A stretch of DNA of 25,084 nucleotides from Pseudobdellovibrionaceae bacterium (GCA_044359815.1 JBIKLL010000036.1:1-25084), one strand, 5' to 3'; positions 11,553-25,084 are shown, counted from the first letter of the stretch. Notes: generated by a model not told the origin, from the letters alone. Numbers and translations: made by a program.

Positions 11553-12448
11553 TGTTATTTGCAACTGAAACCGCAGCTGAAAAACGCAAAAGCTTTCGTG
11601 CCCAATTAAAAACAGGAAAGCTTTTGAAATTTCCTGGAGCCTTTTCCCCACTGGTTGCCATGCAACTGGAGAAACTGGGAGCCAACGGGATTTATATTTC
11701 AGGTGCCGTTTTGGCCAACGATTTAGGTTATCCCGATATTGGACTGACAACATTGTCAGAGGTCGCAAACCGTGGCCGCCAAATCGCCAGGGTTACCAAG
11801 CTTCCATCAATCATAGATATTGATACTGGCTTTGGAGAACCCATGAGCGCCGCCAGAACCGTGCAAGAATTAATCGAACTGGGACTGTCAGGTTGCCATC
11901 TAGAGGACCAAGAAAATCCAAAACGCTGTGGTCATTTGGATGGAAAATCCTTGGTTGACTCGAAAGCCATGTGCATGAAGGTTTCGGCGGCCAGCAAGGC
12001 AAAAACCTTGGATCAAAATTTTTTAATTATCGCCAGAACAGACGCCAGAGCCAGCGAAGGCTTGGATAAGGCCATAGAACGGGCAAAGGCTTACGTCGAT
12101 GCCGGCGCTGAGATGATTTTCCCTGAAGCTTTACAAGACGAAAAAGAATTTGAAAAATTCAGAGCTGCTGTGAAAGTCCCACTGCTGGCCAACATGACAG
12201 AGTTTGGAAAATCCAAGCTGCTGAATGCCACTCAGTTAACAAATCTGGGATACAATATGGTTATCTATCCAGTGACTACGTTGCGACTGGCTCTTAAGGC
12301 CGTGGATGCAAACTTTAAAAAGATTTTTGCTGATGGAACACAAGATGGCGTGATTGACCAAATGCTGACTCGCAAAGAGCTTTACGAGATCGTTCAGTAT
12401 GAGAAGTATAATGATTTCGACCAAAACATCTTTAACTTCAAAGTCTGA
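11552..12448 (+). CDS. prpB: 2-methylisocitrate lyase
   Basis: DIDTGFG, EDQENPKRCGHLDGK, IIARTDA, PLLANMTEFGKS motifs; TAATG coupling to prpD. Confidence 0.96.
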   Translation: MLFATETAAEKRKSFRAQLKTGKLLKFPGAFSPLVAMQLEKLGANGIYISGAVLANDLGYPDIGLTTLSEVANRGRQIARVTKLPSIIDIDTGFGEPMSAARTVQELIELGLSGCHLEDQENPKRCGHLDGKSLVDSKAMCMKVSAASKAKTLDQNFLIIARTDARASEGLDKAIERAKAYVDAGAEMIFPEALQDEKEFEKFRAAVKVPLLANMTEFGKSKLLNATQLTNLGYNMVIYPVTTLRLALKAVDANFKKIFADGTQDGVIDQMLTRKELYEIVQYEKYNDFDQNIFNFKV

Positions 12449-12450
12449 CC

Positions 12451-12606
12451 GCGATCAAATTAACAGAATTAGAATTTCAGATTTTTATTTAGAAAGGTTA
12501 CGGCTTCCTGCCTCATCCACTCGGGCCAAGGCCCCCGCCATCCATGGCTCCGCGGAGAACCTTTCTAAATAAAAATCTGAAATTCTAATTCTTCTAAATT
12601 GATCGC
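12451..12606. repeat. Long inverted repeat with a GC-rich structured loop
   Basis: Perfect 35-bp arms 12465-12499 / 12558-12592 plus outer GCGATCAA/TTGATCGC (12451-12458 / 12599-12606). Begins 2 nt after the prpB stop. Confidence 0.92.
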
Positions 12607-12620
12607 TGATAGCTTTTCGC

Positions 12621-12717
12621 GCTAACGGCCGCACTGCGTATCTTTGTGTTGCTTCATCAATTGATGCCGCAACACAAAGATACGCAGTGGCGCGCTCGCT
12701 GCACAAGCCACAAAAAT
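12621..12717 (+). repeat. Palindromic repeat family unit A (core without a full outer arm)
   Basis: GCTAACGGCCGC (12621-12632), hairpin CACTGCGTATCTTTGTGTTGC...GCAACACAAAGATACGCAGTG, GCGCGCTCGC (12690-12699), then TGCACAAGCCACAAAAAT shared with unit B. Confidence 0.9.
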
Positions 12718-12844
12718 ATTAACTAAGGAAATTCTTAAACTCTCAAACCGCTATACGCTGAGACTATGGCTAAATAAAATCAACATGCTTTTTGCAATTT
12801 GATATCAGATTTAATTCCTAAAATTGGTTTTGGCAGAGCAACTT

Positions 12845-12864
12845 CAGATATGTGCGTTGCTCGC
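12845..12864 (+). repeat. Decayed right-half remnant of the repeat family
   Basis: CAGATATGTGCGTTGCTCGC resembles CAGATATGCCATGCGCGCTCGC at 15879-15900; no partner motif found. Confidence 0.4.
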
Positions 12865-12887
12865 TTCCTAAACGCGGACTGCCTAAG

Positions 12888-13098
12888 GCTAAAAAACTTT
12901 GATATTTAAATTTTTACTTTTCGATTCTGCGTTTTTCATTTTTGTGGCTTGTGCAGCGTCGCGCTCTGCGTATCGCTGGAGTGCGGCGCCGCCAGGTGAA
13001 GCACTCCGCGAGACGAAGTGCGGCCGTTAGCGAAAGCCACAAATTTGAAAAATGCAGAATCGAAAAGAAAAAATTTATAAAGTTTAAAGTTTTTTAGC
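12888..13098 (-). repeat. Palindromic repeat family unit B with imperfect outer arms
   Basis: Outer arms GCTAAAAAACTTT...CTTTTCGATTCTGC...TGTGGCTT / AAGCCACA...GCAGAATCGAAAAG...AAAGTTTTTTAGC. Core motif on minus at 13020-13031, variant partner GCGCGACGC at 12956-12964, inner stem GGAGTGC/GCACTCC. Confidence 0.9.
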
Positions 13099-13474
13099 GG
13101 CAGATGATGCGGGTGATGTAGTGCTCAGGTTCTTTGCCTTTGAGCTCGATGATTTCGGAAATCAATCCGCCGTCAGCCATTTTCACGACATTTTGTCTGT
13201 GCCTGTTTACCTGGGTCCCGTACTGCACTAATTCTTTACCCATCATTTTGCAGTAGTCACTGGCCGGAGTGATGTTGCTGGCTAAATCTTGGTGTAATGC
13301 TAGAGGCTTACCACCTACGGTCAGTTTAGGTTCGATAACAGTGATAGATCCATCAAAATTTGCAAATGCCGATTTGTATTGGACATTGTCGTTTATTTTC
13401 AGACACACTTCAGCGGCTTGTGCTGACTGAAAATTTAAACCCAATACCAGAAAAAATAATTTGATAAAATTCAT
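13094..13474 (-). CDS. Small secreted hypothetical protein (126 aa)
   Basis: ATG at 13474 with AAAGGGA SD 6 nt upstream; signal peptide MNFIKLFFLVLGLNFQSAQA; 3 Cys. No family recognised. Confidence 0.75.
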   Translation of the reverse strand: MNFIKLFFLVLGLNFQSAQAAEVCLKINDNVQYKSAFANFDGSITVIEPKLTVGGKPLALHQDLASNITPASDYCKMMGKELVQYGTQVNRHRQNVVKMADGGLISEIIELKGKEPEHYITRIICR

Positions 13475-13788
13475 CACTGATCCCTTTTGAGAGTTGTTGT
13501 TTACAAAAATTCCTGCTGAACAAGTGGGCAGACTTATCAAAATTATGTTTTCTCACGAACCATTAAATTTATTTTCTTGGTTTAACTGAATTCTTTTCAA
13601 ACCAAACATCAAGAGATCGGCAAAATGTTTTTCAAAAAACGAATTTCGAAAACACTTTTAAAAATTAATTCTACAGAGGCAAAACTGCGAACCGAGGATT
13701 TTTTCAGCGAAGTTATTTTTAGTTCCGATTTTAATATTGCGCAGCGTCACTTGCAAGAGTGCGCGCCGAACCCACGTCGCTTAAACGA

Positions 13789-15612
13789 TTATTTAGCCTT
13801 CTGAGAAAGCTCTTCCCAGCGCTGATACAATTTATCAATTTGGCTCTGATGATTTGATATTTCCTGCATGACCTCAGTCAGTTTTCTAGAATCACTGACC
13901 ACCTCAGAGCTTTGGCTTTGATTCACCAGATGCTCTAGCTCTTTTTCAGTTTTTTGAATCACAGCTTCGATGCCATCCAGTTCAGTTTGTTCTTTGAAAC
14001 TGAGTTTTTGTTTTTTAGAAGACTCACTCTTGCTGTCAGAATTTTTTGGATTTTTTTTGTTTTGCTTAAGCTTATCTTGAAAAATCTGCTGTTGATCATG
14101 CCAGTCCTGCCATTGATCAAATCCCACCATGGTATCGATTTGCTTTCCGCCCTGTTCATCGATACCAAAAGCTAAAATCTGATCGGTCACCTGATCCAAA
14201 AAATATCTGTCATGGGTGACCAAAATAATAGCCCCATTAAAATCTTTTAAAACTTCAGCTAGTGTGTCCAATGTCTGCATATCTAAATCATTGGTGGGCT
14301 CATCCAGCACCAATAAGTTTGTTTCTTGCAACATCAATTGGGCCAACAGCAACCGGCTTTGTTCACCGCCAGACAGTTTTCTGACGGGAGCTTCCATTTG
14401 TTCATGTCTAAATAAAAATCGCGCCAAATAGCTTTTGATGTGGACATTCACACCCTGAAAAACCACCGTGTCCCCTACAGGGCAAATGGTTTTTTGCACA
14501 GATAATTCGGGATCCAAGCTGTCCCGATTTTGTTCAAAATAAGTCAGATTCAATCTTTCTGCGTGAAACACAGTGCCCGTATCAGGTTCGACAGTTTTAT
14601 TCAGGATTTTAATCAGGGTTGATTTGCCGCTGCCATTCACACCCATTAACCCAATCCGAGAAGTCCTTGAAATCAACAAATCCATCTGCGGAATAATTAA
14701 ATTTCCATTGTATGATTTTGAAATCCCCTTGGCTTCGATCAGTTTTTTGGGATTTTTTTCAAGAGTTTGAAAATCAATTCTGACAGCCTGATTTCGATTG
14801 CGTTCACTCAGATCATCAACAGTATCAGCCAACCGGTGGGTTTCATTAATTCTGGCTTTTTGTTTTGTCTGCCGGGCCTTAGCTCCCCGCCTGAGCCATT
14901 CAGTTTCCCTACGCAAAGTATTTTTCAGTTTGGTTTCCCTGGTTTCTTGCGCGCTCAGCAAATCCTCTTGCACCGTTAAAAAATGAGCATAATCGCCTTT
15001 TACACTCAGAATTCCATCGCTGTATTTGCGATTAAGCTCAATCACTCTGTTGGCAATTTTTTGAATAAACAATCTGTCGTGGCTGATTGTGATGCTGGCG
15101 AAATTGGCTTCTGAAATCTGTTTTTCCAACCACAGGATGCTTTCAATATCTAAATGATTTGTGGGCTCATCAAACAAAAATAAATCAGGATCCTTCATCA
15201 TTTCACGGGCCAGCGCCACGCGCTTTTTCCATCCGCCTGATAAATTTTTAATCAAAATATCGGGCTCAAACTGATTCAAAGAAAGCTTTGTCATGAGCTC
15301 TTGAGCTTTTGCAGTGGCCTCCCAATCATCAGGATCCGCAGCCCCTTCCATGATCACTTGAAATAAATTTGAGCCTTCCTTAAATTGAGGCACCTGTTCC
15401 AAATACCCAATGCGCAAACCCTTTTGCAAAGCCAATCTGCCCGCATCGGGTTTTTCAATCCCTGCAATGATTTTTAGCAGGGTTGATTTACCGGCTCCGT
15501 TGGGACCGATCAAAGCGATTTTTTCCGACGACTCCACTGAAAAAGTCAGTCCGTCAAACAAGGCCTTGCTTTCAAAAGATTTTGTCAGTTCATGAGCTCC
15601 AAATAAAATCAA
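13789..15612 (-). CDS. ABC-F family ATPase, Uup-like
   Basis: Two NBDs (GPNGAGKST/LSGGWKKR/DEPTNHLD and GVNGSGKST/LSGGEQSR/DEPTNDLD), no TM domain, ETEWLRRGAKAR linker, C-terminal KLSFKEQ coiled coil ending in RWEEL. Probable TTG start at 15612 with AGGGGA SD 8 nt upstream; track start 15693. Confidence 0.92.
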   Translation of the reverse strand: MILFGAHELTKSFESKALFDGLTFSVESSEKIALIGPNGAGKSTLLKIIAGIEKPDAGRLALQKGLRIGYLEQVPQFKEGSNLFQVIMEGAADPDDWEATAKAQELMTKLSLNQFEPDILIKNLSGGWKKRVALAREMMKDPDLFLFDEPTNHLDIESILWLEKQISEANFASITISHDRLFIQKIANRVIELNRKYSDGILSVKGDYAHFLTVQEDLLSAQETRETKLKNTLRRETEWLRRGAKARQTKQKARINETHRLADTVDDLSERNRNQAVRIDFQTLEKNPKKLIEAKGISKSYNGNLIIPQMDLLISRTSRIGLMGVNGSGKSTLIKILNKTVEPDTGTVFHAERLNLTYFEQNRDSLDPELSVQKTICPVGDTVVFQGVNVHIKSYLARFLFRHEQMEAPVRKLSGGEQSRLLLAQLMLQETNLLVLDEPTNDLDMQTLDTLAEVLKDFNGAIILVTHDRYFLDQVTDQILAFGIDEQGGKQIDTMVGFDQWQDWHDQQQIFQDKLKQNKKNPKNSDSKSESSKKQKLSFKEQTELDGIEAVIQKTEKELEHLVNQSQSSEVVSDSRKLTEVMQEISNHQSQIDKLYQRWEELSQKAK

Positions 15613-15711
15613 GCTGATATTCCCCTGGCTGTCGTTGTTAGACCGAAAGTGACTGTTGATCTGCAACATGGCAAGCAAAATGGACTGAATCAAAAAATCA
15701 TTGATTCTGAA

Positions 15712-15967
15712 TTAGTTTCCTGAAGCCAGAACTCATATTTTCAAAAATTCCTTTGCTGTATATCTTTTGAATACTTGCTAACGGCCGCAAGCTCATCTCT
15801 CGTGTTGTGTCATTTAATTTCATTGGGTTTATGATCAATAAATTATCACCAAGCCAATGAAATTAAATGACACAACACCAGATATGCCATGCGCGCTCGC
15901 AAATGTATTCAAAAGATATACAGCAAAGGAATTTTTGAAAATATGAGTTCTGCCTTCAGGAAACTAA
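15712..15967 (+). repeat. Palindromic repeat family unit C (complete, 256 bp)
   Basis: 63-bp outer arms 15712-15774 / 15905-15967 with one mismatch. GCTAACGGCCGC at 15777-15788, perfect 25-bp inner stem 15802-15826 / 15854-15878, CAGATATGC, GCGCGCTCGC at 15891-15900. Confidence 0.95.
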
Positions 15968-15997
15968 CCCCAGATTGATTAGTTGCCTTTAAATTTA

Positions 15998-16099
15998 TGA
16001 CTCAATACGAGAGATGAGCTTGCGGCCGTTAGCAAGTATTCAAAAGGTGTGAAATCATAGAAATATTTTTTAAAATTCAAATTCCCCACAGACAGGTGG
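15998..16099 (-). repeat. Palindromic repeat family half-unit D
   Basis: Core motif on minus at 16022-16033. 16003-16099 is a diverged direct repeat of 24123-24220. Its own partner arm is missing. Confidence 0.88.
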
Positions 16100-16219
16100 T
16101 CTTATACCTACCCAGTAGGGCAGTTGGTGCGCCTCGTAAATGACTTTGTTCGTTCCCTCTAAAGACTAAAAATGTTAACAAATTTCAAAAGTAAAAATTA
16201 ATAAATTCAGGAGATAAAA

Positions 16220-17371
16220 ATGGCAGAATACGTAAACCCCGACTATGTTGCTGAACCCGAAAAAATGAATGTCAAAAAAGGCCTTGAAGGCGCGGTGATC
16301 GACACATCCAGCGTTTCAAAAGTGAATCCTGATACAAATTCATTGATTTACCGTGGCTACCCGGTGCAAGAGCTGGCTGAAAAATGCAGCTTCGAAGAAG
16401 TCGCGTATTTAATGTACAAAGGCGAACTGCCAAATCCCACAGAGTTGAAAGATTTCGAAAAATTAGAACGCAGTTACCGCGACATCACCAAAGATAATTT
16501 GCAAGTGATCAAAACCCTGCCCAAAAAATCACACCCTATGGATTCTATCCGCACAGGGGTCAGTTTTTTAGGCTGCGAAGACGAACGGATCTGGGATGCA
16601 AAACCGGCAACTAATTATGACAAAGCGGTCAGACTGCTGGCAAAAATCCCAACCATGATTGCTGCTGATTTTAGATTTAAAAAGGGACAGGACTTTATTG
16701 CTCCTGATAAAAACCTTTCGATTTCTGAAAACTTTTTTCACATGTGCTTTGGCAAAGTTCCTGACAAACAAATCGTTAAGGCCTTTGATGTGTCATTGGT
16801 TCTGTATGCCGAACACAGCTTTAATGCCTCGACATTTACAACCCGAGTGGTCACCAGCACTGAATCCGATATTTATTCTGCGACAGTGGCAGGCATTGGC
16901 GCCTTGAAAGGCCCACTGCACGGTGGCGCCAACGAACAGGTCATGCACATGATGCTGGAAATTGCAGACCCAGCAAAGGCTGAAAAATGGATGCTGGACG
17001 CCCTGGCAGCCAAACGAAAGGTCATGGGATTTGGTCACCGAGTCTATAAATCAGGTGATTCTAGGGTTCCCACTATGAAAAAATATGCTCAAAAAATGGC
17101 AGACATTACGGGACAGCAAAAGTGGATGCAGATTTACGAAACCCTTGAAAAGGTCATGGTCGACAAGAAAAAAATCTATCCAAATTTGGATTTCCCTGCG
17201 GGCCCAGCGTATTACATGATGGGATTTGAAATTGATTTTTTCACACCGATTTTTGTGATGGCTCGAACCACCGGTTGGTCAGCCCACATTATGGAACAAG
17301 CAGCCAGCAACAGGATTATCAGGCCACTGAGTGAATACATCGGTAAGCCTCAAAGACGGGTTGAAAAGTGA
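16220..17371 (+). CDS. prpC: 2-methylcitrate synthase / citrate synthase
   Basis: KGLEG, LIYRGY, LYAEHSFNASTFT, GPLHGGANE, MGFGHRVY, PNLDF motifs; short type-I size; near prpD/prpB; SD CAGGAG. Confidence 0.88.
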   Translation: MAEYVNPDYVAEPEKMNVKKGLEGAVIDTSSVSKVNPDTNSLIYRGYPVQELAEKCSFEEVAYLMYKGELPNPTELKDFEKLERSYRDITKDNLQVIKTLPKKSHPMDSIRTGVSFLGCEDERIWDAKPATNYDKAVRLLAKIPTMIAADFRFKKGQDFIAPDKNLSISENFFHMCFGKVPDKQIVKAFDVSLVLYAEHSFNASTFTTRVVTSTESDIYSATVAGIGALKGPLHGGANEQVMHMMLEIADPAKAEKWMLDALAAKRKVMGFGHRVYKSGDSRVPTMKKYAQKMADITGQQKWMQIYETLEKVMVDKKKIYPNLDFPAGPAYYMMGFEIDFFTPIFVMARTTGWSAHIMEQAASNRIIRPLSEYIGKPQRRVEK

Positions 17372-18480
17372 TTTTTAAACTTAAAGTAATACTTAAAGCC
17401 GCTCTCAATAGTAAAAGCCCTGCTTTAACAAGATCTCTGATGTGCCTGATTCTGACTGGACTTTTGGCCTCCTGCGGATCAGGCAGCAAAAAGAATCAAA
17501 ACAGCGGCGGCGCCCCTGTGGTCAACGCTGCTTTGAACGAACAGAACGTTCCATTAAAGATTGCCTTTGGTTCCTGCGCACAACCCAGAACAGCACAACC
17601 AATCTGGAAAAAGATTCTGGAACAAAAGCCCGAGGCTTATTTAGCCCTGGGTGATAACACCTACACCAATGACAAAGACGAAAATTATTTGGACACGGCT
17701 TACAAACTGCAATGGCAAGTCCCCGAATGGGTAGAGGTCATCAAAACCGTGCCGGTTTTTGCCACCTGGGATGATAACGATTACGGTTTAAATGATGGGG
17801 GTAAAAACTTTGCCCTTAAGAAGGATTCTCACGATACTTTTTTAAAATATTTTAATTGGTTAAAGCCCAAAATGGCTTCAGAGGATGGAATTTATTATTC
17901 TGTGTCCCTGGGAACACCCGAACAAACTCTGCACTTTATATTTTTAGACACCAGAAGCTTTAGGGATGATCTGGAAATCAACGACAAACCCAAAAGCCCA
18001 TTGGATAAATACAAACCCACCAAGGACATTAAAAAAACTCTGCTGGGCGAGGAACAATGGAAATGGCTTGAAGCCGAAATGGCTAAACCAGCATCCATCA
18101 GAGTGATAGTTTCAAGCATTCAGTTTTTAGCCACCGAACAGGGCTTTGAAAAATGGGCAAACTTTCCGCACGAAAGAAACCGATTGATCCAATTGATTAA
18201 CAAAACATCTCAACCCAGTGTTTTTATTTTATCTGGGGACAGGCATTTTTCAGAAATTGCTGAGCTGAAAACAAAATCAAAAACCATTTCTGAAATCACA
18301 GCCTCGGCAATCAATCGAATAAGCACCATTGAAAACGAACCCAACAGGTTCAGGCTGGGAAAGCTCTATAACAAAGAAAATTTTGGCATGATGGAAATCG
18401 ACTGGAATGAAAGACAGGTTGGCTTTCGCATTCACGACATACACGGAAACACAATCAACCAAGCAAGTTATAAATTTTAA
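17368..18480 (+). CDS. PhoD-like metallophosphatase, probable lipoprotein
   Basis: IAFGSC, LGDNTY, WDDNDY, LDTR, LLGEEQWKWLE, LSGDRH motifs; lipobox LLASC. Start uncertain. Confidence 0.88.
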   Translation: MIFKLKVILKAALNSKSPALTRSLMCLILTGLLASCGSGSKKNQNSGGAPVVNAALNEQNVPLKIAFGSCAQPRTAQPIWKKILEQKPEAYLALGDNTYTNDKDENYLDTAYKLQWQVPEWVEVIKTVPVFATWDDNDYGLNDGGKNFALKKDSHDTFLKYFNWLKPKMASEDGIYYSVSLGTPEQTLHFIFLDTRSFRDDLEINDKPKSPLDKYKPTKDIKKTLLGEEQWKWLEAEMAKPASIRVIVSSIQFLATEQGFEKWANFPHERNRLIQLINKTSQPSVFILSGDRHFSEIAELKTKSKTISEITASAINRISTIENEPNRFRLGKLYNKENFGMMEIDWNERQVGFRIHDIHGNTINQASYKF

Positions 18481-18482
18481 TT

Positions 18483-19208
18483 ATGAATGAACTAATGACA
18501 TCAGAAAACCTATTGGCTTTTGCAACCCTGTTTATGCTGGAGCTGGTATTAGGCATCGACAATATTATTTTTATTTCGATAATTTCCAGCAAACTGCCCG
18601 AGAACCTCAGAAACCGCGCACGAACCGTGGGCCTCAGCTTAGCCGTTATCACCAGAATATTGCTGCTGATGTCGATCAGCTGGGTTATCAGCTTAACCGA
18701 GCCTTTGTTTCATGTGTTCACAAAAGCCATTTCCGGCAGGGACTTGATTCTAATTTTTGGTGGTTTATTTTTAATCGCCAAAAGTACTTTTGAAATCCAT
18801 CACAAACTGGAGGAAGCTGGCTATCCCCAGGAAAAACGTTTTAAGGCCTCAAGCTTTGCCTCGGTCATAGCTCAGATTTTAATTTTGGATATTATTTTTT
18901 CATTGGATTCGGTGATCACAGCTGTGGGAATGGTTGATTCCATTCAGATTATGATTGCGGCTGTGTTGGCCTCGACCGCTGTTATGATTGTAAGCGCCAA
19001 ATCTATTTCAGACTTTGTTGAAAAGCATCCGACACTGAAGATGTTGGCTTTGAGCTTTTTAATTTTAGTGGGCGTAACCCTGTTGGTAGAGGGCATGGGA
19101 CAACATATCAGCAAAGGCTATATCTATTTTGCCATGGCGTTTTCACTGACAGTCGAAGTCCTAAATATCAGGCTTAGGGTGAAATTTAATACCCTTAATA
19201 AATCTTGA
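18483..19208 (+). CDS. TerC-family integral membrane protein
   Basis: LELVLGIDN, DIIFSLDSVITAVG, KHPTLKMLALSFL, KGYIYFAMAFS motifs. Confidence 0.95.
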   Translation: MNELMTSENLLAFATLFMLELVLGIDNIIFISIISSKLPENLRNRARTVGLSLAVITRILLLMSISWVISLTEPLFHVFTKAISGRDLILIFGGLFLIAKSTFEIHHKLEEAGYPQEKRFKASSFASVIAQILILDIIFSLDSVITAVGMVDSIQIMIAAVLASTAVMIVSAKSISDFVEKHPTLKMLALSFLILVGVTLLVEGMGQHISKGYIYFAMAFSLTVEVLNIRLRVKFNTLNKS

Positions 19209-19239
19209 AACGAAGGTCCTTTTATAGTTCGATTGAACT

Positions 19240-20682
19240 ATGAACAGGGACTTTGTTCTGATTTATCTGAATGGCAAGCGACTTGAAATCAGGGGCAGGG
19301 ATTGCTTTTTGATGATGAGCGATTATCTGCGCTACCAAAAGCAAATGACGGGCACCAAGGTTGTCTGTGCTGAAGGCGATTGCGGAGCCTGCACCTGCCT
19401 AAGATTTTCACCTTTGTCTGCTGAGCAAAGATTTGTTTCCTTTAATTCTTGTATAATGCCAGTGGCTTTATTAGATGGAAGCCACATAATCACCGTTGAA
19501 GGAATTGCCGAAGATTCCGGCTTAAACCCCATTCAAAAGGCCATGGTCGAATGCAATGGTTCACAGTGCGGATTTTGCACACCGGGTTTTGTAATGTCCT
19601 ATTGTGATTTGTTTGAGAGAAAGCCCGGTAAACTACAACAAACCATCACCGAAAAAAATATTAAAAATGCACTGACTGGCAATCTGTGTCGGTGCACAGG
19701 CTATCAATCAATCATAGATGCTGGCAGTAAAATTAAAAAACTGGCCACTGTTTCTGACCGTTACAGAAATCCAAAAATTGAATCAGAGCTTTCATCACAT
19801 TTAAAAAAATCAGTTTACATCAAACATGAAGATTTAATTTTTTATGCACCCACAACCGTAAAAGCTGCTACCGCTTTCAAAGCCAAAAACAAAAATGCCA
19901 TGGTCTTTTCCGCTGCGACGGACCTGGGTGTGCCAATCAACAAGGGTAAGCTGAAACCCAAAGCTCTATTAAGCCTGAACCTGATAGCTGATTTGTATAA
20001 ATCCAAATTTTCAAAGACCACAAAATCTTATATGATTGGCGCCAAGGTAACCCTGACCGAAATTGAAAATACCTTGGGGCCACAGATACCAGAATTTGAA
20101 AAACTGCTTCAGGTTTTTGCATCACCTCAAATCAAAAATTCAGCGACGTTGGCCGGCAATGTGGCCAATGGATCACCTATTGGTGACACCCTGCCCTTTT
20201 TGTCAGTGATCGGAGCCTGGGTGCATTTACAGGGACAGAGCTCAAAACGTAAAATCGCCTTTAACAAATTTTATAAGGGCTATCGAAAGCCAGATATCAA
20301 AACAGACGAAATCATAACCGCCATTGAAATCCCTATCCCCGAACCTGAGGAAATTCTGCGTCTGTACAAGGTCAGTCAGCGAAAGGATTTAGACATTTCG
20401 GTGGTCAGCGCTGGGATCAGAACCGTGATTAAAGAAAATAAAATTATAGAGTTTAAGTTCAGCCTTGGCGGAGTGGCTGAAACTGTAAAACCCCTGCCAT
20501 TGACTGAAAAGTTTTTGACACAAAAACTAATTTCAGATGAGACGATTCAGAAAGCCTGTCAGGTTTTATCCAAAGAAATCAAACCACTGTCAGATCTGAG
20601 GGGACAATCTGATTATCGCAATAAATTATCGCAAAATTTCCTGATCAAGTTTTTTAAAGAAATCGAACATGACAGAATTTAA
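19240..20682 (+). CDS. xdhA: Xanthine dehydrogenase small subunit (2Fe-2S plus FAD domains)
   Basis: GTKVVCAEGDCGACT, SQCGFCTPGF, GNLCRCTGY, FASPQIKNSATLAGNVANGSPIGD, KVSQRKDLDIS motifs. Confidence 0.94.
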   Translation: MNRDFVLIYLNGKRLEIRGRDCFLMMSDYLRYQKQMTGTKVVCAEGDCGACTCLRFSPLSAEQRFVSFNSCIMPVALLDGSHIITVEGIAEDSGLNPIQKAMVECNGSQCGFCTPGFVMSYCDLFERKPGKLQQTITEKNIKNALTGNLCRCTGYQSIIDAGSKIKKLATVSDRYRNPKIESELSSHLKKSVYIKHEDLIFYAPTTVKAATAFKAKNKNAMVFSAATDLGVPINKGKLKPKALLSLNLIADLYKSKFSKTTKSYMIGAKVTLTEIENTLGPQIPEFEKLLQVFASPQIKNSATLAGNVANGSPIGDTLPFLSVIGAWVHLQGQSSKRKIAFNKFYKGYRKPDIKTDEIITAIEIPIPEPEEILRLYKVSQRKDLDISVVSAGIRTVIKENKIIEFKFSLGGVAETVKPLPLTEKFLTQKLISDETIQKACQVLSKEIKPLSDLRGQSDYRNKLSQNFLIKFFKEIEHDRI

Positions 20683-23005
20683 AAGCAGGCCTTTAGATTC
20701 AGCAACAACACACGTTAGCGGCGAATCCGAATACGTTGATGACAGAAGCATACAATCAGACGAAGTCTTTGTAGAAGTCGTTTACAGCCAAAAAGCTCAT
20801 GCCAAAATTATTGATATAGATTTTAAACAAACTCAGAAAATCAAAGGCTATGTAGCGCATTTTACGGCCAATGATTTAGCTTTTAATAAATGGGGCACAA
20901 TTTTTCAGGATCAACCCTTGTTGGCTGCAGATCAGGTCCAATTTGTGGGTGAACCCATTGCCCTGGTTGTGGCTGACAACCGTTGGATTTTATCTGAATT
21001 AAAAAATTCTGTGGTTGTAAAATATAAGGACCTGCCAGCGATTATGGACATTGATTCTGCCATCAAAGCAAAATCATTTATTGGCGAAACCCGTCGTATC
21101 AACAAAGGCAATTTTGAAAAGGCTTTTGGCGAAAGCCCACACAAACTGACAGGCAAAATCACAATCGCAGGACAAGATCATTTTTATCTGGAATCACAGG
21201 CCTGCGTGACCTACCCCAAAGAAAATTATTTGGAAGTTCATTCAAGCTCACAACATCCCACAGAAGTTCAGCATGTGATTGCACATGCACTGGGCCTAGA
21301 ATCAAAAGACGTGGTTTGTATCGTCAAACGAATGGGTGGAGCTTTTGGTGGCAAGGAATCACAGGCAGCACCCTTTGCTGCCTTTACAGCATGGGTCGCC
21401 AAAAGACTGAATCGCCCTGCCCGATTGGTCCTTACCAAAGACGACGATATGATTATGACTGGCAAGCGCAATCCATTTGAAAACAAATACCAAGTGGGTT
21501 TTGATCAAACGGGAAAACTGCTGGCGCTAAAGGTAGATCTTTTTTCTGATGGTGGAGCCTATGCTGATTTATCAACGGCGATTATGGAAAGAGCCATGCT
21601 TCATTGTGATAATGCCTATTTTATCCCAAACGTCAGCATCATTGGCACTGTTTGCAAAACTCATCATCACCCACACACGGCCTTTCGTGGTTTTGGTGGT
21701 CCCAAAGGTGTTGCCACTATCGAAAACATTATTGAGGAAATTGCTCAGGCATTGGGTAAAGACGCCTTAGAGATCAGAAAACTAAATTGCTACAAAGTTT
21801 CCAAAGACAACCAGACACCCTATGGACAGATTGTGCAAAACAACAATCTGCCAAAATTATTTGAAACCCTCGAGCATTCTGCAAATTATTGGCAAAGACG
21901 AAAACTTATTACTGAAAAAAACCAGACTGACAAATTTTATCTGTACGGAATGTCCATGACTGCCGTGAAATTTGGGATTTCATTCACCACCCGTTTTTTA
22001 AATCAGGGAAGCGCCTTGGTAAATATTTATACCGATGGTTCGATTCAAGTTTCAACGGGTGCTACCGAAATGGGTCAAGGGGTTAATACCCGCATAGCTC
22101 AGGTCGTGGCTGATTGTTTTGGCATAAGCCCGTCAAAAATTTCTGTGATGCCCACTTCAACTGAAAAAATTCCTAACACTTCACCAACGGCTGCCAGCAG
22201 TGGCACTGATATCAATGGCAGTGCTGCAAAAATTGCCTGCGAAAAAATTAAGTTTCGCCTAAGCCAACTAGCTGAAAAGGTTCTGGACATCCCCGTTGAA
22301 AAACACGCCCGATTCACTGCGGCTCCAGGCACAGAGGCCGAATATCAATTTACTGATGAGCAAAGCAAACAGTTTTTGTTTAAGGATTCAAAGGTTGCGG
22401 ATCCTGCTAATCCCAACAAAGCCATAATGTTTGAAGACCTGATTAAGGAAGCTTATTTTTCCAGAATTTCATTGCAGGACGTAGGGTATTTTAAATACCC
22501 AGGGATTCATTACAACAAAACCACAGGTGCGGGTGAGCCCTTTTATTATTTCACCCAAGGAACCGCTGTCAGCGAAGTCCAAATTGATCGCTTTACTGGT
22601 GAACTTAAAATTTTGCGCACTGATATTTTGATGGATCTGGGTAATCCCATTAATAAAGATTTAGACATTGGACAAATTGCCGGTGGATTTATACAGGGCA
22701 TGGGCTGGGTGACGACAGAAAAGCTTTATTACAAAAATGGCTTACTGCTGTCGCATTCACCCAGCACTTACAAAATACCTAATGTGCAAGACATCCCTAG
22801 GATTTTTAATATCGATTTATTGTCTAACCCAGATAACAAAAAGAACCTGCACGGAACCAAAGCTGTCGGCGAACCCCCATTGTTGCTGTCACTGTCTGTG
22901 TGGACGGCGATCAAGGATGCTTTGCAAACCCATCAGGGAAAACAGGTTTCCCTGAAACTTCCGGCAACCTTTGAAGAAATTTTTAACCACTTGAACAATC
23001 AATAA
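20669..23005 (+). CDS. xdhB: Xanthine dehydrogenase molybdopterin-binding subunit
   Basis: QDHFYLE, RMGGAFGGKESQ, AFRGFGGP, TEMGQG, PTAASSG, KAVGEPP (substrate-binding Glu/Arg and catalytic Glu motifs intact). Confidence 0.95.
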   Translation: MTEFKSRPLDSATTHVSGESEYVDDRSIQSDEVFVEVVYSQKAHAKIIDIDFKQTQKIKGYVAHFTANDLAFNKWGTIFQDQPLLAADQVQFVGEPIALVVADNRWILSELKNSVVVKYKDLPAIMDIDSAIKAKSFIGETRRINKGNFEKAFGESPHKLTGKITIAGQDHFYLESQACVTYPKENYLEVHSSSQHPTEVQHVIAHALGLESKDVVCIVKRMGGAFGGKESQAAPFAAFTAWVAKRLNRPARLVLTKDDDMIMTGKRNPFENKYQVGFDQTGKLLALKVDLFSDGGAYADLSTAIMERAMLHCDNAYFIPNVSIIGTVCKTHHHPHTAFRGFGGPKGVATIENIIEEIAQALGKDALEIRKLNCYKVSKDNQTPYGQIVQNNNLPKLFETLEHSANYWQRRKLITEKNQTDKFYLYGMSMTAVKFGISFTTRFLNQGSALVNIYTDGSIQVSTGATEMGQGVNTRIAQVVADCFGISPSKISVMPTSTEKIPNTSPTAASSGTDINGSAAKIACEKIKFRLSQLAEKVLDIPVEKHARFTAAPGTEAEYQFTDEQSKQFLFKDSKVADPANPNKAIMFEDLIKEAYFSRISLQDVGYFKYPGIHYNKTTGAGEPFYYFTQGTAVSEVQIDRFTGELKILRTDILMDLGNPINKDLDIGQIAGGFIQGMGWVTTEKLYYKNGLLLSHSPSTYKIPNVQDIPRIFNIDLLSNPDNKKNLHGTKAVGEPPLLLSLSVWTAIKDALQTHQGKQVSLKLPATFEEIFNHLNNQ

Positions 23006-23779
23006 ATGTCACAACTGGATTTTATTAATTCAATAGAACAACTGCAAAAAAACCAAACGCCATTTGTGTTGATTACTTTGGTTGATGAAAAGGGTCATGC
23101 CCCACAGGATGTGGGCGCAAAAGCTATTGTCACCCATCAGGGCCTTTATTTTGGGACTGTGGGTGGTGGCAAAATCGAAGCTAAGGCCATTCTGTTTGCC
23201 CAAAATATTTTGAACCAAACCGAACCCGATCCCAGACATTTAAAAAAATGGAATTTGCAAACCGATGTGGGCATGAGCTGCGGTGGCGAAGTGACTTTAT
23301 TTTTTGAAGGTTATTTTGTTTCAATTAAAAACGTCGTTATATTTGGAGCAGGTCATGTGGCCCAAGCTTTGTGCCGAGTCCTGCTGCCATTGGATTTTCA
23401 AATCACAGTGATCGATCCCAGACCCGAATGGATTGAAAAACTACCGGCTTCCCAAAATCTAGTAGCGACACTGGAACCAACTCCCACCAACAGGGTTAAA
23501 AGCTTTCCTGATGATTGTTTTTTTGTGGTGATGACCCAAGGTCATTCAACAGATTTACCCATACTGGAAGCACTGTTAAAAACTAAAAATCCAAAATACA
23601 TTGGGTCCATCGGCAGCGATGTAAAAGCTCTGAAAATCAAAAAAGATTTGTTAGCACTGGGTGTGGACCCTAATCAGATCGAAAAGCTGCGATGCCCCAT
23701 TGGGATTGATATTCCCAGCAACAATCCCCACGCCATCGCAATCTCTGTCGGCGCTCAGATTTTGCAACACTGCAAATAA
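23006..23779 (+). CDS. xdhC: Xanthine dehydrogenase accessory protein XdhC
   Basis: GTVGGGKIE, GMSCGG, IFGAGHVAQAL, VMTQGHSTD, IGSIGS, CPIG motifs; follows xdhB. Confidence 0.94.
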   Translation: MSQLDFINSIEQLQKNQTPFVLITLVDEKGHAPQDVGAKAIVTHQGLYFGTVGGGKIEAKAILFAQNILNQTEPDPRHLKKWNLQTDVGMSCGGEVTLFFEGYFVSIKNVVIFGAGHVAQALCRVLLPLDFQITVIDPRPEWIEKLPASQNLVATLEPTPTNRVKSFPDDCFFVVMTQGHSTDLPILEALLKTKNPKYIGSIGSDVKALKIKKDLLALGVDPNQIEKLRCPIGIDIPSNNPHAIAISVGAQILQHCK

Positions 23780-23801
23780 ATCCTATCGTTTTAAGAATGG
23801 T

Positions 23802-24220
23802 CCACTTATCTGCGGTTAATTAGAATTTTAAAAAATATTTCTATGGTTTTACACCTTGAGAATACATTTGCGAGCGCGACGTTTAATTTACCGCCGCATA
23901 TCTGGTGATGCGTAAATACAAAGGTAATTTTTTTCACTATTTTTAGACACTCGCTAACGGCCGCGGGCTCATCTCTCGTAATGAGTCATTTAGACTAATC
24001 ACTTTTACGATTAATAAATTATCTTAAACCTGATTAGTCTAAATGACTCAACACCAGATATGCCCCGCGCACTCGCTGCATGTGTCTAAAAACAGTAAAA
24101 ACAAATTATCTTAGCATTTATGCAATACGAGAGATGAGCTTGCGGCCGTTAGCAAGTATTCACAAGGTGTAAAACCATGGAAATATTTTTTTAAAATTCT
24201 AATTAATCGCAGGCAAGTGG
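23802..24220. repeat. Nested composite palindrome E: a minus-strand unit enclosing a plus-strand unit
   Basis: Outer arms 23802-23865 / 24156-24220; minus-unit motifs at 23870-23878 and 24142-24153; middle arms 23909-23950 / 24082-24124; plus-unit motifs at 23953-23964 and 24067-24076; perfect 20-bp inner stem 23982-24001 / 24031-24050. Confidence 0.95.
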
Positions 24221-24262
24221 GTCAGTTATTAAGTTTTTTCGACCAAAAAGCAAAACTTGTTT

Positions 24263-24278
24263 TGGCACTCTGATTGCA
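24263..24278 (+). promoter_or_regulatory. Sigma-54 (-24/-12) promoter
   Basis: TGGCAC-TCTGA-TTGCA matches TGGCAC-N5-TTGCW with correct GG-N10-GC spacing; intergenic and oriented towards the CDS at 24493. Confidence 0.75.
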
Positions 24279-24297
24279 AATTGCTGATTCATCAAAG

Positions 24298-24439
24298 GCA
24301 AAAGGAAACTGAAAGTGATTTTTGTAATGTAGAAAATTCCTGAAGTGATTGTTTAGAAAGCAATTTAAGAACAAACTTCAAAATTTTCCAAGGACAAAAT
24401 CACACCACAGTGGCCCACCGGTGCAAAAGGAAACTGAAA
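24298..24439 (+). repeat. 17-bp direct repeat in the putative 5' leader
   Basis: GCAAAAGGAAACTGAAA at 24298-24314 and 24423-24439, identical. Confidence 0.8.
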
Positions 24440-24492
24440 TTAAAAAACAAAAAACCTGAGCCATAAGGCTCAGCAAAAAATAAGGAGAATCT

Positions 24493-24882
24493 ATGAAAAA
24501 CAATTTCTTAAAACTAACTGCAGCTTTATTGGTAACTGCATTTTCTGCAGCTGCATTTGCTGGCTACGGGATAGGTACCGGTATGGATGACAACAGATAC
24601 TGCTACAACACAGATCGCTTTGGTAAAACCTATGGCAGCCCGGTAAATTCTTTGCTGTGTGCATCGCAATATGTGGTCGCCGAAACCGAATCCGATGGCA
24701 GACATTGTTTTGCGGCCGATGAAGACGGCGACGCTTTTGGATATGCAATTGATGTTAAATACTGCTTTGATCATTATCAAAGTGGCGCAGCTGAAGGTGG
24801 TTACAATGCATGCTTTAGGGCCGATTCAAACAACGTCACCTACGGATATGCTGTAGCTGACAGATATTGCCAAGTATACTAA
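24493..24882 (+). CDS. Secreted protein with three 35-aa C-x18-C repeats
   Basis: Strong SD TAAGGAG; signal peptide ending AAAFA; 6 Cys in three C-x18-C units at a 35-aa period. Confidence 0.88.
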   Translation: MKNNFLKLTAALLVTAFSAAAFAGYGIGTGMDDNRYCYNTDRFGKTYGSPVNSLLCASQYVVAETESDGRHCFAADEDGDAFGYAIDVKYCFDHYQSGAAEGGYNACFRADSNNVTYGYAVADRYCQVY

Positions 24883-24887
24883 ACACC

Positions 24888-25084
24888 AACTGATCCACTT
24901 GCCTGCGGTTAATTAGAATTTTAAAAAAATATTTCTTTGTATTTTATTTCTTGTGGATACATCCAGCGAGCGCGCATGGCATATCTGGTGATGCGTAAAT
25001 GCAAAGATAATTTTTTTCACTATTTTTAGACACTCGCTAACGGCCGCGGGCTCATCTCTCGTAATGAGTCATTTAATTTAGCTA
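24888..25084. repeat. Second nested composite palindrome F (truncated by the window end)
   Basis: Diverged direct repeat of about 23801-23992, with GCGAGCGCGC at 24966-24975 and GCTAACGGCCGC at 25036-25047 in the same arrangement as E. Confidence 0.92.

Follow-up and report, generated by a model that had tools for sequence, protein, structure and literature searches.

The window, i.e. the whole 25,084-nucleotide stretch of DNA from a Pseudobdellovibrionaceae bacterium analyzed here, contains a series of repeat units that share the 12-mer GCTAACGGCCGC (motif A) and are summarized in Table 1. An earlier note had listed seven sites of this motif, and all of them were found at the positions and on the strands claimed (7/7), each between genes (7/7); no extra match with up to two mismatches was detected in the window (shuffled sequences: 0.70 ± 0.86). 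The full unit layout proposed at the same time, with outer arms enclosing two facing motifs and an inner stem-loop, applied only to unit C (motif A at 15777) and to the inner unit with motif A at 23953, and failed for the others. The left outer arm of unit A is missing and its place is occupied by a hairpin of a second family, F2 (arms 12440-12499/12558-12617, 87% complementary), which scored 32 bits (E 0.17) against the Rfam model TwoAYGGAY and did not reach the 43-bit cut-off. The partner motif of unit B is the variant GCGCGACGC (12956-12964). The arms of unit C (15712-15774/15905-15967) pair at 62/63 positions, as had been claimed, and the unit folded as single-stranded DNA (ssDNA) with z = -25; independent contigs enter its left arm and motif A from unique DNA with zero differences. 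The motif A copy at 16022 is without a partner motif, and the arrangement of this half with unit C is found intact at other places in the genome, e.g. C6 and C106. The motif at 24142 has its partner in TCGCGCTCGC at 23870 and forms the outer unit of a nested pair, and the copy at 25036 belongs to an inner unit interrupted by the contig end.

Table 1. Repeat units and associated features in the window (positions counted from its first nucleotide; A, motif A; B, motif B; R2, covariance model of the tip)
Feature	Position	Strand	Details
F2 neighbouring hairpin, second family	12440-12617		TwoAYGGAY-like GC tip between 60-nt AT-rich arms
Unit A, short subtype A3	12621-12712	+	R2 60.5 bits on - strand
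Unit A, parts	A 12621-12632; inner stem-loop; B 12690-12699; remnant right arm	+	
Unit B, subtype A3	12907-13077	-	R2 95.5 bits
Unit B, parts	arms 12907-12950/13034-13077; A 13020-13031	-	40/44 arm positions paired
Unit C, subtype A1	15712-15967	+	inner member of nested pair; R2 97.1 bits
Unit C, parts	A 15777-15788; B 15891-15900	+	63-nt arms (62 paired); 42-bp inner stem
Right half of outer unit, formerly enclosing unit C	15968-16099	-	B half missing
Right half of outer unit, parts	spacer; A 16022-16033; outer arm 16036-16099	-	
Unit D, complete nested unit	23795-24227	-	R2 92.5 bits (inner), 55.3 bits (outer)
Unit D, outer parts	B 23870-23879(-); A 24142-24153(-); arms 23826-23865/24156-24195		
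Unit D, inner parts	A 23953-23964(+); B 24067-24076(+)		
IS1-like terminal-repeat remnant, left end of unit D	23795-23816	+	17/22 identical to IS left end
IS1-like terminal-repeat remnant, right end of unit D	24206-24227	-	18/22
Unit E, nested, cut by contig end	24888-25084	-	IS1-like end 24888-24909, 18/22
Unit E, parts	outer arm; outer B 24966-24975(-); inner A 25036-25047(+)		

The genome-wide count that had been suggested gave 139 exact copies of the 12-mer in 95 clusters, i.e. a dispersed family, with 1/139 copies inside an ORF of at least 120 amino acids. The many dispersed units are gene-less and without coding capacity, and measure about 200-430 nt. Two different motifs face each other in the basic unit, and inverted 12-mers arise through nesting only. 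The strict alternation in orientation reported before is true of the window and is explained by this nesting, because both nested layouts read A+ and then A- on the plus strand: neighbours less than 450 bp apart alternated in 43/44 cases, more distant ones in 25/33. Copies are located between convergent genes in 39/60 cases (background 348/2349) and have housekeeping and secreted-protein genes as neighbours; their orientation to transcription is 8:9, and no excess of promoter-like sites was found at the elements.

As 38/102 clusters lie at contig ends of the assembly, which is 91% complete, and as the core can be joined in the wrong orientation between long inverted arms, fold-back or chimeric assembly joins were considered as the source of the units. 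This explanation is largely refuted and scarcely credible: in four other sequencing runs the unique flanks are joined to the arms with no differences and at 20-40-fold depth over the elements, the single-contig genome of a relative (G254) holds 48 copies, and the tip described below covaries across genomes.

The 12-mer is a local variant of one side of a hairpin tip of ~70 nt with the consensus GCG..GYGC / GCRTATC ... GRAGAYG / GCGGCCG and an apical G-N-A loop. The motifs had been called invariant, which holds within this genome only; in relatives, the 12-mer varies. Nor are the facing motifs non-complementary as stated before: some of their positions are complementary, with better pairing on the opposite strand, and the tip folds better on one strand in 67/67 units. 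A covariance model of the tip (R2) matched in 20/149 other genomes of the order and in 0/126 genomes outside it. The covariation check proposed earlier was positive, as the stems covary, 95% of cells are paired (slid controls: 36-50%), and 29/41 pairs of the alignment changed on both sides, with G-U-tolerant pairs; a comparison with Rfam gave no match to a described family at gathering score. Loops were counted in 107 of 109 tips (two were not parsed) and comprise GNA triloops (50/107), GNRA (16/107), and GNYA (10). They lean to the DNA type; GNA mini-hairpins have a far higher stability in DNA according to the cited sections of PMC13037366.

The exact 12-mer occurred 0-3 times per genome in 181 family members, the same as a reversed control, a relaxed two-box pattern gave three single matches in relatives (chance), and the two-box pattern over GTDB gave 40 single matches with no common fold, judged by eye to be chance. 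Among the metagenome matches 4/13 were chance, and scans of viral sequences were empty. The copy number of the tip ranges from 0 to over 100 per genome, with a patchy distribution; the tips of G254 are 0.94 alike, and G053 had 23 tip matches among 24 candidates scored. Some sites, at dapB and an aminotransferase, are kept across genera. Sites shared with this genome amount to 7/74 (background 5.2%, p 0.09), and ancient shared sites were rejected as a rule on this count. At co-directional sites in relatives, the better-folding strand is antisense in 22/29 (p 0.008). The copies showed no replichore bias (28/48, p 0.31), and terminus depletion with a lagging-strand bias in G254 was unsupported after GC skew had located the terminus. 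No description of the tip was found in the literature searched. The tip is an old folded motif spread across a whole order of bacteria and apparently undescribed so far.

The observation that arms differ between copies and match within a copy was confirmed, with an identity of 0.98 within vs. 0.75 between copies in this genome. In G254, the arms are 97.5% paired within a copy and share 0.34 identity between copies (shuffled 0.29). Arm symmetry ends 62-70 nt from GCRTATC (quartiles, n = 94), at about 67 nt, with medians of 64.5-69 nt in G254, G241, G212, and G053, and the terminal repeats begin ~85-90 nt from GCRTATC. Mirror copies of the site-specific flank were present at 18/50 sites (null 0.4%), eight of them extending into a coding end. 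The GC content of the arms compared to local DNA is 0.65 vs. 0.46 in G254 and 0.22 vs. 0.37 in this genome. In a sister population, seven orthologous sites retain the arm beside the shared flank and have a different interior, which is inverted in three; the sister contigs are short-read assemblies chosen as filled, and swaps could be chimeric joins across repeats. No empty orthologous sites were seen among these contigs, chosen as they were, or in the G241 congeners, which are too diverged.

Of the A1 arms, 31/79 match an IS left end at 15/22 or better (shuffles 0.06%), 25 of these 31 beginning 71-74 nt from the core, and 48/79 fall below 15/22. The matched terminal repeat borders a gene for an IS1-like transposase (NF033558, E 5e-15, below cut-off); 27/28 IS1-like loci have terminal inverted repeats, nearly all AACTG..CC, and the element is present in 146/384 genomes of the order. 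The 91%-complete assembly of this genome gave no match to the IS1-like transposase; multi-copy IS are often missing from bins. No tip was found beside IS1-like genes (0/36 loci; 0/29 loci with the terminal motif). In this genome, F2 tips are likewise bounded by the IS1-like end (five matches), as is an F4 tip in G056, and TIRYT ends of this genome enclose F4 tips in 12/23 pairs and the 12-mer in 0/23 TIRYT/subclass-2.1 repeat pairs. In G254, 12/48 copies are bounded on both sides by terminal repeats belonging to two HUH 'TIRYT' transposase genes (NHFH/Y..NP), and 36/48 are without a recognizable terminal repeat. Among the 17 gene-less repeat pairs of both G254 TIRYT types, 12 enclose an intact tip and two none; in two, whose ends differ, one and the same insert interrupts the tip, and in one a decayed half tip adjoins a transposase (Y1) gene. 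The locus L347 is a perfect repeat pair, empty and without a tip. The A1 arms below 15/22 (48/79), the G254 copies without a terminal repeat (36/48), and the absence of the IS1-like transposase from the assembly are observations that weigh against the explanation preferred below, as do the lack of empty sites, the possible chimeric joins in the sister contigs, the tip matches of G053, where two profiles found no Y1 gene, and the following two results. None of the tested Y1-gene repeats occurred at the sampled copies in G241, G212, G209, G227, G294, and G284. Target-site duplications of elements were not in excess (2/86 and 6/51 vs. null 2.5% and 4.8%), none were evident at the 14 copies with both ends, and none were clear at IS loci. 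The outer ends are borrowed terminal repeats, IS1-like here and of TIRYT type in the relative, which places the element among MITE/TIR-dimer repeats.

The folded single strand had earlier been read as recognized by a protein, with REP/RAYT, IS200/IS605 ends, and attC as possible models. Selection probably acts on the folded strand with its conserved mismatches, and we infer that a protein may recognize the tip; the named models were not upheld. GTAG and GTGG were present at the 5' foot of 1 and 0 of 51 hairpins here and, among relatives, of 6 and 12 of 86; the foot has no conserved tetranucleotide, and no tip lay within 1.5 kb of 51 and 45 Y1/integrase loci. No short subterminal hairpins flanking tnpA/tnpB were found. 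The bottom strand of attC sites folds better and has unpaired bases, a likeness to the tip, but RYYYAAC ... GTTRRRY boxes were absent (0/53), the TTAGC end varies in relatives, and the two tyrosine recombinases of this genome gave best matches to XerC/XerD-type models (catalytic domains scanned). An integron was rejected, as there is no cassette array, integron integrase, or attC box. Eleven Y1 ORFs are encoded in this genome, the nearest 12-mer being 4,075 bp from a Y1 gene. For the 8-copy Y1 family, no long flanking inverted repeats were found at 29 loci of relatives, a profile search did not uphold a resemblance between the arms and the sequence upstream of these genes, and a single degenerate remnant lies ~350 bp from one gene. 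Two profiles found no Y1 gene in G053, no enzyme gene adjoined the sampled copies, GIY-YIG was limited to one 650-aa ORF in the genome, and reverse transcriptases were found neither in this genome nor in 3/4 relatives.

We consider it slightly more probable than not that the units are non-autonomous, MITE-like hairpins built in layers and moved in trans via borrowed transposon ends, with an exchangeable, selected tip. Arms and outer ends differ from lineage to lineage and are derived from unrelated transposons. The outermost layer would be a decaying transposon terminal repeat of ~20 nt, IS1-family-like here and HUH-Y1 'TIRYT' in the relative, and the copies of each lineage were most likely carried into gaps just behind stop codons by the transposase that matches these ends, supplied in trans. 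The middle layer would consist of arms of ~45-50 nt that drift freely while complementarity is kept within the copy; one arm may template the other upon folding of the strand, over the observed reach of ~67 nt from the tip. The inner layer would be the lopsided tip of ~70 nt, selected as a structure and probably as ssDNA bound by a putative protein. Recombination appears to swap, invert, and nest tips between copies, with the caveats given for the sister contigs.

Related repeats are known. The repeats of the NH[YF]H/Y..NP gene of TIRtron/TIRYT (TnpA-Y1 subclass 2.1) also form dispersed dimers, and such dimers bound the 12/48 copies in G254; neither a conserved central tip nor copy-specific perfect arms appear in the descriptions cited (sections of Di Nocera 2013, PMC3733652, and Quentin 2018, PMC6006769). 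In this genome, moreover, IS1-like ends are present instead, and elsewhere most copies lack a recognizable end. IS-derived MITEs are likewise gene-less with ends matching an IS terminal repeat, but the elements studied here are inside out, with a conserved centre, decaying ends, and an interior not derived from an IS; no target duplication was found, and the same centre has other ends in other lineages.

Alternatively, the tip itself could be active. A putative enzyme would bind it on ssDNA, nick at a fixed distance, and repair by fold-back, so that one flank is copied anew in inverted form over ~45 nt at every insertion; if a transposon end lies within that flank, the outcome would be a two-ended MITE, the tip making MITEs instead of riding on them. 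We regard this as unlikely, as we do the related proposal of a transposase-independent ssDNA signal, bound by a putative host enzyme, that acts as MITE-maker and palindrome ruler through templated rewriting of a ~45-nt zone on each side, with F2 and F4 as sister tips. If the latter were true, perfect palindromes would be made and maintained, and any neighbouring DDE or HUH end would yield a two-ended MITE. The fixed symmetry reach in several genomes, the near-unique arms around near-identical tips in G254, the occurrence of one tip with three unrelated end families, the mirror copies of gene ends, and the presence in G053, where no Y1 gene was found, are consistent with an active tip. However, the base composition of the arms is unlike that of local DNA in both G254 and this genome, arms here are clearly homologous between copies, orthologous sites keep arms while tips change, none of the sampled copies has an enzyme gene next to it, and the perfect repeat pair at L347 has no tip.

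A REP/REPIN-type element, whose mismatched tip would be acted on by a domesticated HUH Y1 nuclease (cf. bulged REP and E. coli TnpA-REP), is quite unlikely in our judgement. The REPINs and REP-BIMEs described in the cited sections of Bertels and Rainey (2011; PMC3116915) and PMC8266576 are also hundred-copy intergenic hairpins, with parallels in the location behind stop codons, convergent-gene bias, nesting, compensatory variable stems, conserved mismatches, and one favoured, better-folding strand; the 11 Y1 ORFs and the decayed half tip beside a Y1 gene in G254 would also fit. According to the same sections, they are species-specific and contain two inverted copies of one REP, whereas here two different motifs face each other and the tip is common to several families. 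Furthermore, the GTAG/GTGG foot and a REPtron are lacking, the conserved part is apical and not at the ends, no tip lies near the surveyed Y1/integrase loci, the 12-mer closest to a Y1 gene in this genome is 4,075 bp away, the 8-copy Y1 family has no long flanking inverted repeats in relatives, no Y1 gene was found in G053, and replichore bias is absent. A structured host RNA, i.e. a 3'-UTR or antisense element for termination, stability, or protein decoy whose spread would be secondary, is very unlikely. The model would be TwoAYGGAY (RF01731), which shares a conserved tip, an elongated basal stem, variable copy number, and a possible mobile-element-like spread (cited sections of bioRxiv 10.64898/2026.09.22.753630) and which the neighbouring F2 family resembles; family A, in contrast, has no AYGGAY loops, forms a single unbranched hairpin, and does not match the model. 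Although order-wide conservation, covariation with G-U-tolerant pairs, the position behind stop codons and between convergent genes, persistence of some sites across genera, the antisense preference (22/29), and the GNRA loops (16/107) argue for RNA, GNRA is outnumbered by the DNA-favoured GNA (50) and by GNYA (10) together, orientation to transcription is balanced here (8:9), copy number is patchy (0 to over 100), shared sites number 7/74 against a background of 5.2% (p 0.09), and promoter-like sites are not in excess.

To our knowledge, known small bacterial repeats keep their ends while the middle drifts. In the elements described here, the middle is kept across several families of the order, and the arms drift yet remain paired over a fixed reach; one middle is combined with ends from DDE and HUH transposons that are unrelated to each other. 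Should the tip serve as an ssDNA signal for protein binding, this would point to an unrecognized factor in the biology of repeats. With its 48 nearly identical tips, each between unique arms, the closed genome of G254 offers a clean system for palindrome correction and MITE origin. If the tip is only cargo, it would still represent an undescribed structured motif family (model R2), explaining many assembly breaks.

The hairpin units of family A are layered, with outer arms around a tip that carries two facing motifs, A (a 12-mer) and B. All seven exact copies of motif A listed in the earlier note were found in the window, where no additional match occurred at up to two mismatches (0.70 expected), and the near-perfect arm pairing of unit C (62/63) was confirmed. 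Throughout the window's genome (2.95 Mb, 41% GC, 91% complete), 139 exact copies fall into 95 clusters, one copy lying within an ORF, and just 7 extra copies have one mismatch. The simple units belong to three subtypes (14 A1, 44 A2, and 9 A3). Most loci are nested, with an inverted inner unit at the apex of the outer unit, and complete nested layouts are of two types (17 and 15 clusters). Because both layouts read A+ then A-, the alternating orientation claimed previously holds for 43 of 44 close pairs, but it is not strict among distant pairs (25/33). Contigs of four other lake-water runs joined unique flanks to arms with zero differences, and read depth in run X1 climbed from some 10 to 213-426 across the elements; family A is therefore not an assembly artefact.

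Features of the window, its genome (G000) and relatives' genomes (G009, G254, G472); C and L numbers denote contigs and loci
Feature	Location	Description
Unit A	window:12621	Left arm lost to adjoining F2 hairpin
Unit B	window:13020	Complete
Unit C	window:15777	Complete
Outer half	window:16022	Orphan
Nested unit D		Complete
Unit E		Cut by contig end
F2 hairpin	window:12440-12617	Second hairpin family; two GGA-type loops on - strand; weak TwoAYGGAY match; about 60 motif matches genome-wide, some copies with IS1-like ends
Small proteins	window:24493-24882, 13094-13540	Two; signal-peptide-like starts, no Pfam match; each adjoins elements
Gene neighbours	window:10044-12448, 16220-17371, 19240-23779	Ordinary genes
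TIRtron	G000:C8:9478-10287 (L083)	Y1 gene (NHFH/YIYQNP) flanked by 26-nt F3 inverted repeats; F4, a third tip family, lies within 12/23 F3 pairs elsewhere
HUH-Y1 genes	G000:C49:93316-93948 + 7 paralogues (L084-L090)	Eight copies, 87-93% identical, without inverted ends; microsatellite runs upstream of several; conserved 60-nt leader; relatives in 92/181 family genomes
B-half repeat	G000:C56:2350-2620 (L433)	Degenerate tandem triplication of family-A B half; lies some 350 bp upstream of a gene of the 8-copy Y1 family
tRNA-like genes	G000:C84:38349-38574, C107:26517-26763	Seeming long GC-rich hairpin insertions near T-arm
F5 hairpins	G000:C30:5134-5283, C58:8307-8432, C75:98-516, C84, C107	Asymmetric; 6 copies, several adjoining tRNA-like sequence
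Short perfect palindromes	G000:C101:10528, C107:10669, C88:6999, others	Two families of roughly 16 and 10 copies; some adjoin microsatellites
Stacked tips	L157:1070-1176 (G009)	Family-A tip inside F4-type tip
Insertion sequence	L421:558-1514 (G472)	IS1-family-like, below NCBIfam cut-off, without Pfam transposase match; no clear target duplication
Insert	L352:1485-1860, L387:1370-1860 (G254)	About 110 nt, multi-hairpin; splits tip in both elements
Reverse-transcriptase matches	L332-L341 (G254)	Ten, of which seven form two sets of equal score; likely group II introns

Copies of family A lie directly behind stop codons and favour gaps between convergent genes (39/60 vs 348/2349, p 6e-18). In the window, elements separate the methylisocitrate lyase and methylcitrate synthase genes; other neighbours are an orphan gene, an ABC-F (Uup-like) gene, and a xanthine-dehydrogenase-type cluster with XdhC. 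No replichore bias was found for the copies of G254, a relative assembled as a single contig (28/48), and the sites that the window's genome shares with relatives showed no excess over background (7/74, p 0.09).

The exact 12-mer is private to the lineage of the window's genome, with 0-3 copies per genome in 181 genomes of the family. The folded single strand proposed in the earlier note was retained but changed sides, as the opposite strand folds better in 67/67 units. A covariance model of this better-folding strand revealed the same core in other families. An improved model, R2, was then run on 149 other genomes from the order and matched 20, with 9/26 and 9/31 in two families and 0/30 sampled genomes of the own family; copy counts per genome were capped at 24, a value that thus reads as at least 24. 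No match was found among 126 genomes outside the order. In two genomes of another family, the 12-mer and its partner recur almost letter for letter. Across 34 tip sequences, 95.4% of cells were paired and both-sided changes occurred at 29 of 41 pairs; slid controls gave 36-50%. These figures overstate covariation, since the sequences share ancestry and were aligned by fitting them to the model. The apical loop is most often GNA (50/107; GNRA 16, GNYA 10), the commonest class in 11 of 21 genomes. According to PMC13037366, GNA mini-hairpins are much stabler as DNA than as RNA, which tilts the reading of the tip towards single-stranded DNA.

The arms follow a different pattern of likeness. In 39 units of the window's genome, the two arms of one copy have a likeness of 0.98, against 0.75 for arms of different copies. 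Among the 48 copies in G254, the tips are 0.94 alike, and the arms show 75 mismatches in 2,955 pairs, a between-copy likeness of 0.34 (shuffled 0.29), and a GC content of 0.65 vs 0.46 in the surroundings. The reach of the symmetry is fixed: in the window's genome, arm pairing is 0.95-0.99 at 10-50 nt past the 12-mer, 0.53 at 60-70 nt, and then background. Sampling of 94 copies that lack a recognisable end put the limit at 62-70 nt (quartiles) from the tip motif GCRTATC; medians per genome were 64.5-69 nt (four genomes) and 51-56 nt (two genomes). Mirror symmetry takes in site-specific flank at 18 of 50 sites (null 0.4%), reaching a coding end at 8 of the 18.

Beyond the arms, some copies carry transposon ends. 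An insertion sequence found in G472 has a left end to which the A1 arm-end consensus corresponds; 31 of 79 A1 arms agree with it at 15 or more of 22 positions (null 0.06%), and 25 of the 31 start 71-74 nt from the core. This element codes for a 294-aa protein with IS1 as best family (E 5e-15, below cut-off), and its ends are AACTGGCCCACTT. The IS1-like element occurs in 146/384 genomes of the order, with terminal inverted repeats at 27 of 28 loci, nearly all AACTG..CC; the window's assembly (91% complete) gave no match. In G254, 12 of the 48 copies are bounded by repeats of two NHFH/Y..NP HUH genes, a kind described in PMC6006769 and PMC3733652 as subclass 2.1 or TIRYT. The 17 gene-less pairs of these repeats enclose an intact tip (12), a split tip (2), a decayed half that adjoins a transposase gene (1), or none (2). 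Both split tips hold an identical insert between different ends, and this insert could itself be another small mobile element. Each of the three end families begins some 85-90 nt from GCRTATC, immediately beyond the symmetric zone. Tips are not tied to one kind of end: the IS1-like end also bounds F2 tips in the window's genome and an F4 tip in G056, and the TIRYT ends of the window's genome hold F4 tips in 12/23 pairs and the 12-mer in 0/23.

Nine metagenome contigs were available from a sister population (87-96% identity). In the seven compared, the flank-side arm was kept in 7/7, the interior was different in 7/7, and the outer core was inverted in 3/7, swaps that short-read mis-joins could mimic. 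The insert common to two differently ended G254 copies is less exposed to this caveat because G254 is a single contig. A family-A tip lies within an F4-type tip in G009; tips therefore stack as modules.

Family A works like MITEs, TIR dimers, and REPINs, but shares the defining features of MITEs only in part and belongs to no REP, attC, or Rfam family. The Rfam search proposed earlier gave no match, a GTAG/GTGG foot was not found at the hairpins, nor were attC boxes at the copies. No published description was found in the openly accessible literature searched. That the tip is a RAYT-type substrate appears quite improbable; the idea that copies might flank Y1 or integrase genes was not borne out: in 51 and 45 such loci, scanned over about 1.5 kb, no tip occurred. 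The recombinases of the window's genome are XerC/D-like, and it has no reverse transcriptase.

There is a slimmer chance that the tip is a host RNA. The folding strand is antisense at 22 of 29 co-directional sites of relatives, an excess that favours an RNA-related constraint, but this bias is absent in the window's genome (8:9). Somewhat less remote, though still unlikely, is a rival reading in which the tip drives the making of palindromes and would thereby create MITEs. Against the view that the outer ends were borrowed from transposons stand the lack of a recognisable end in most copies in most genomes, the absence of a Y1 gene in G053 by two profiles, and the failure to find a target duplication at family-A copies.

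The layered structure, the order-wide tip, the strand preference, the fixed reach, and the ends matching two transposon classes were established directly. The proposal as a whole, to which we give slightly better than an even chance, is that copies would spread in trans by a transposase whose ends the lineage's copies carry. One arm would template correction of the other, a general mechanism known from quasi-palindrome repair, and ends outside the corrected zone would decay. Tips would be exchanged by recombination, and the tip, which is ancient and common to several families of the order, would be selected via a putative binder.
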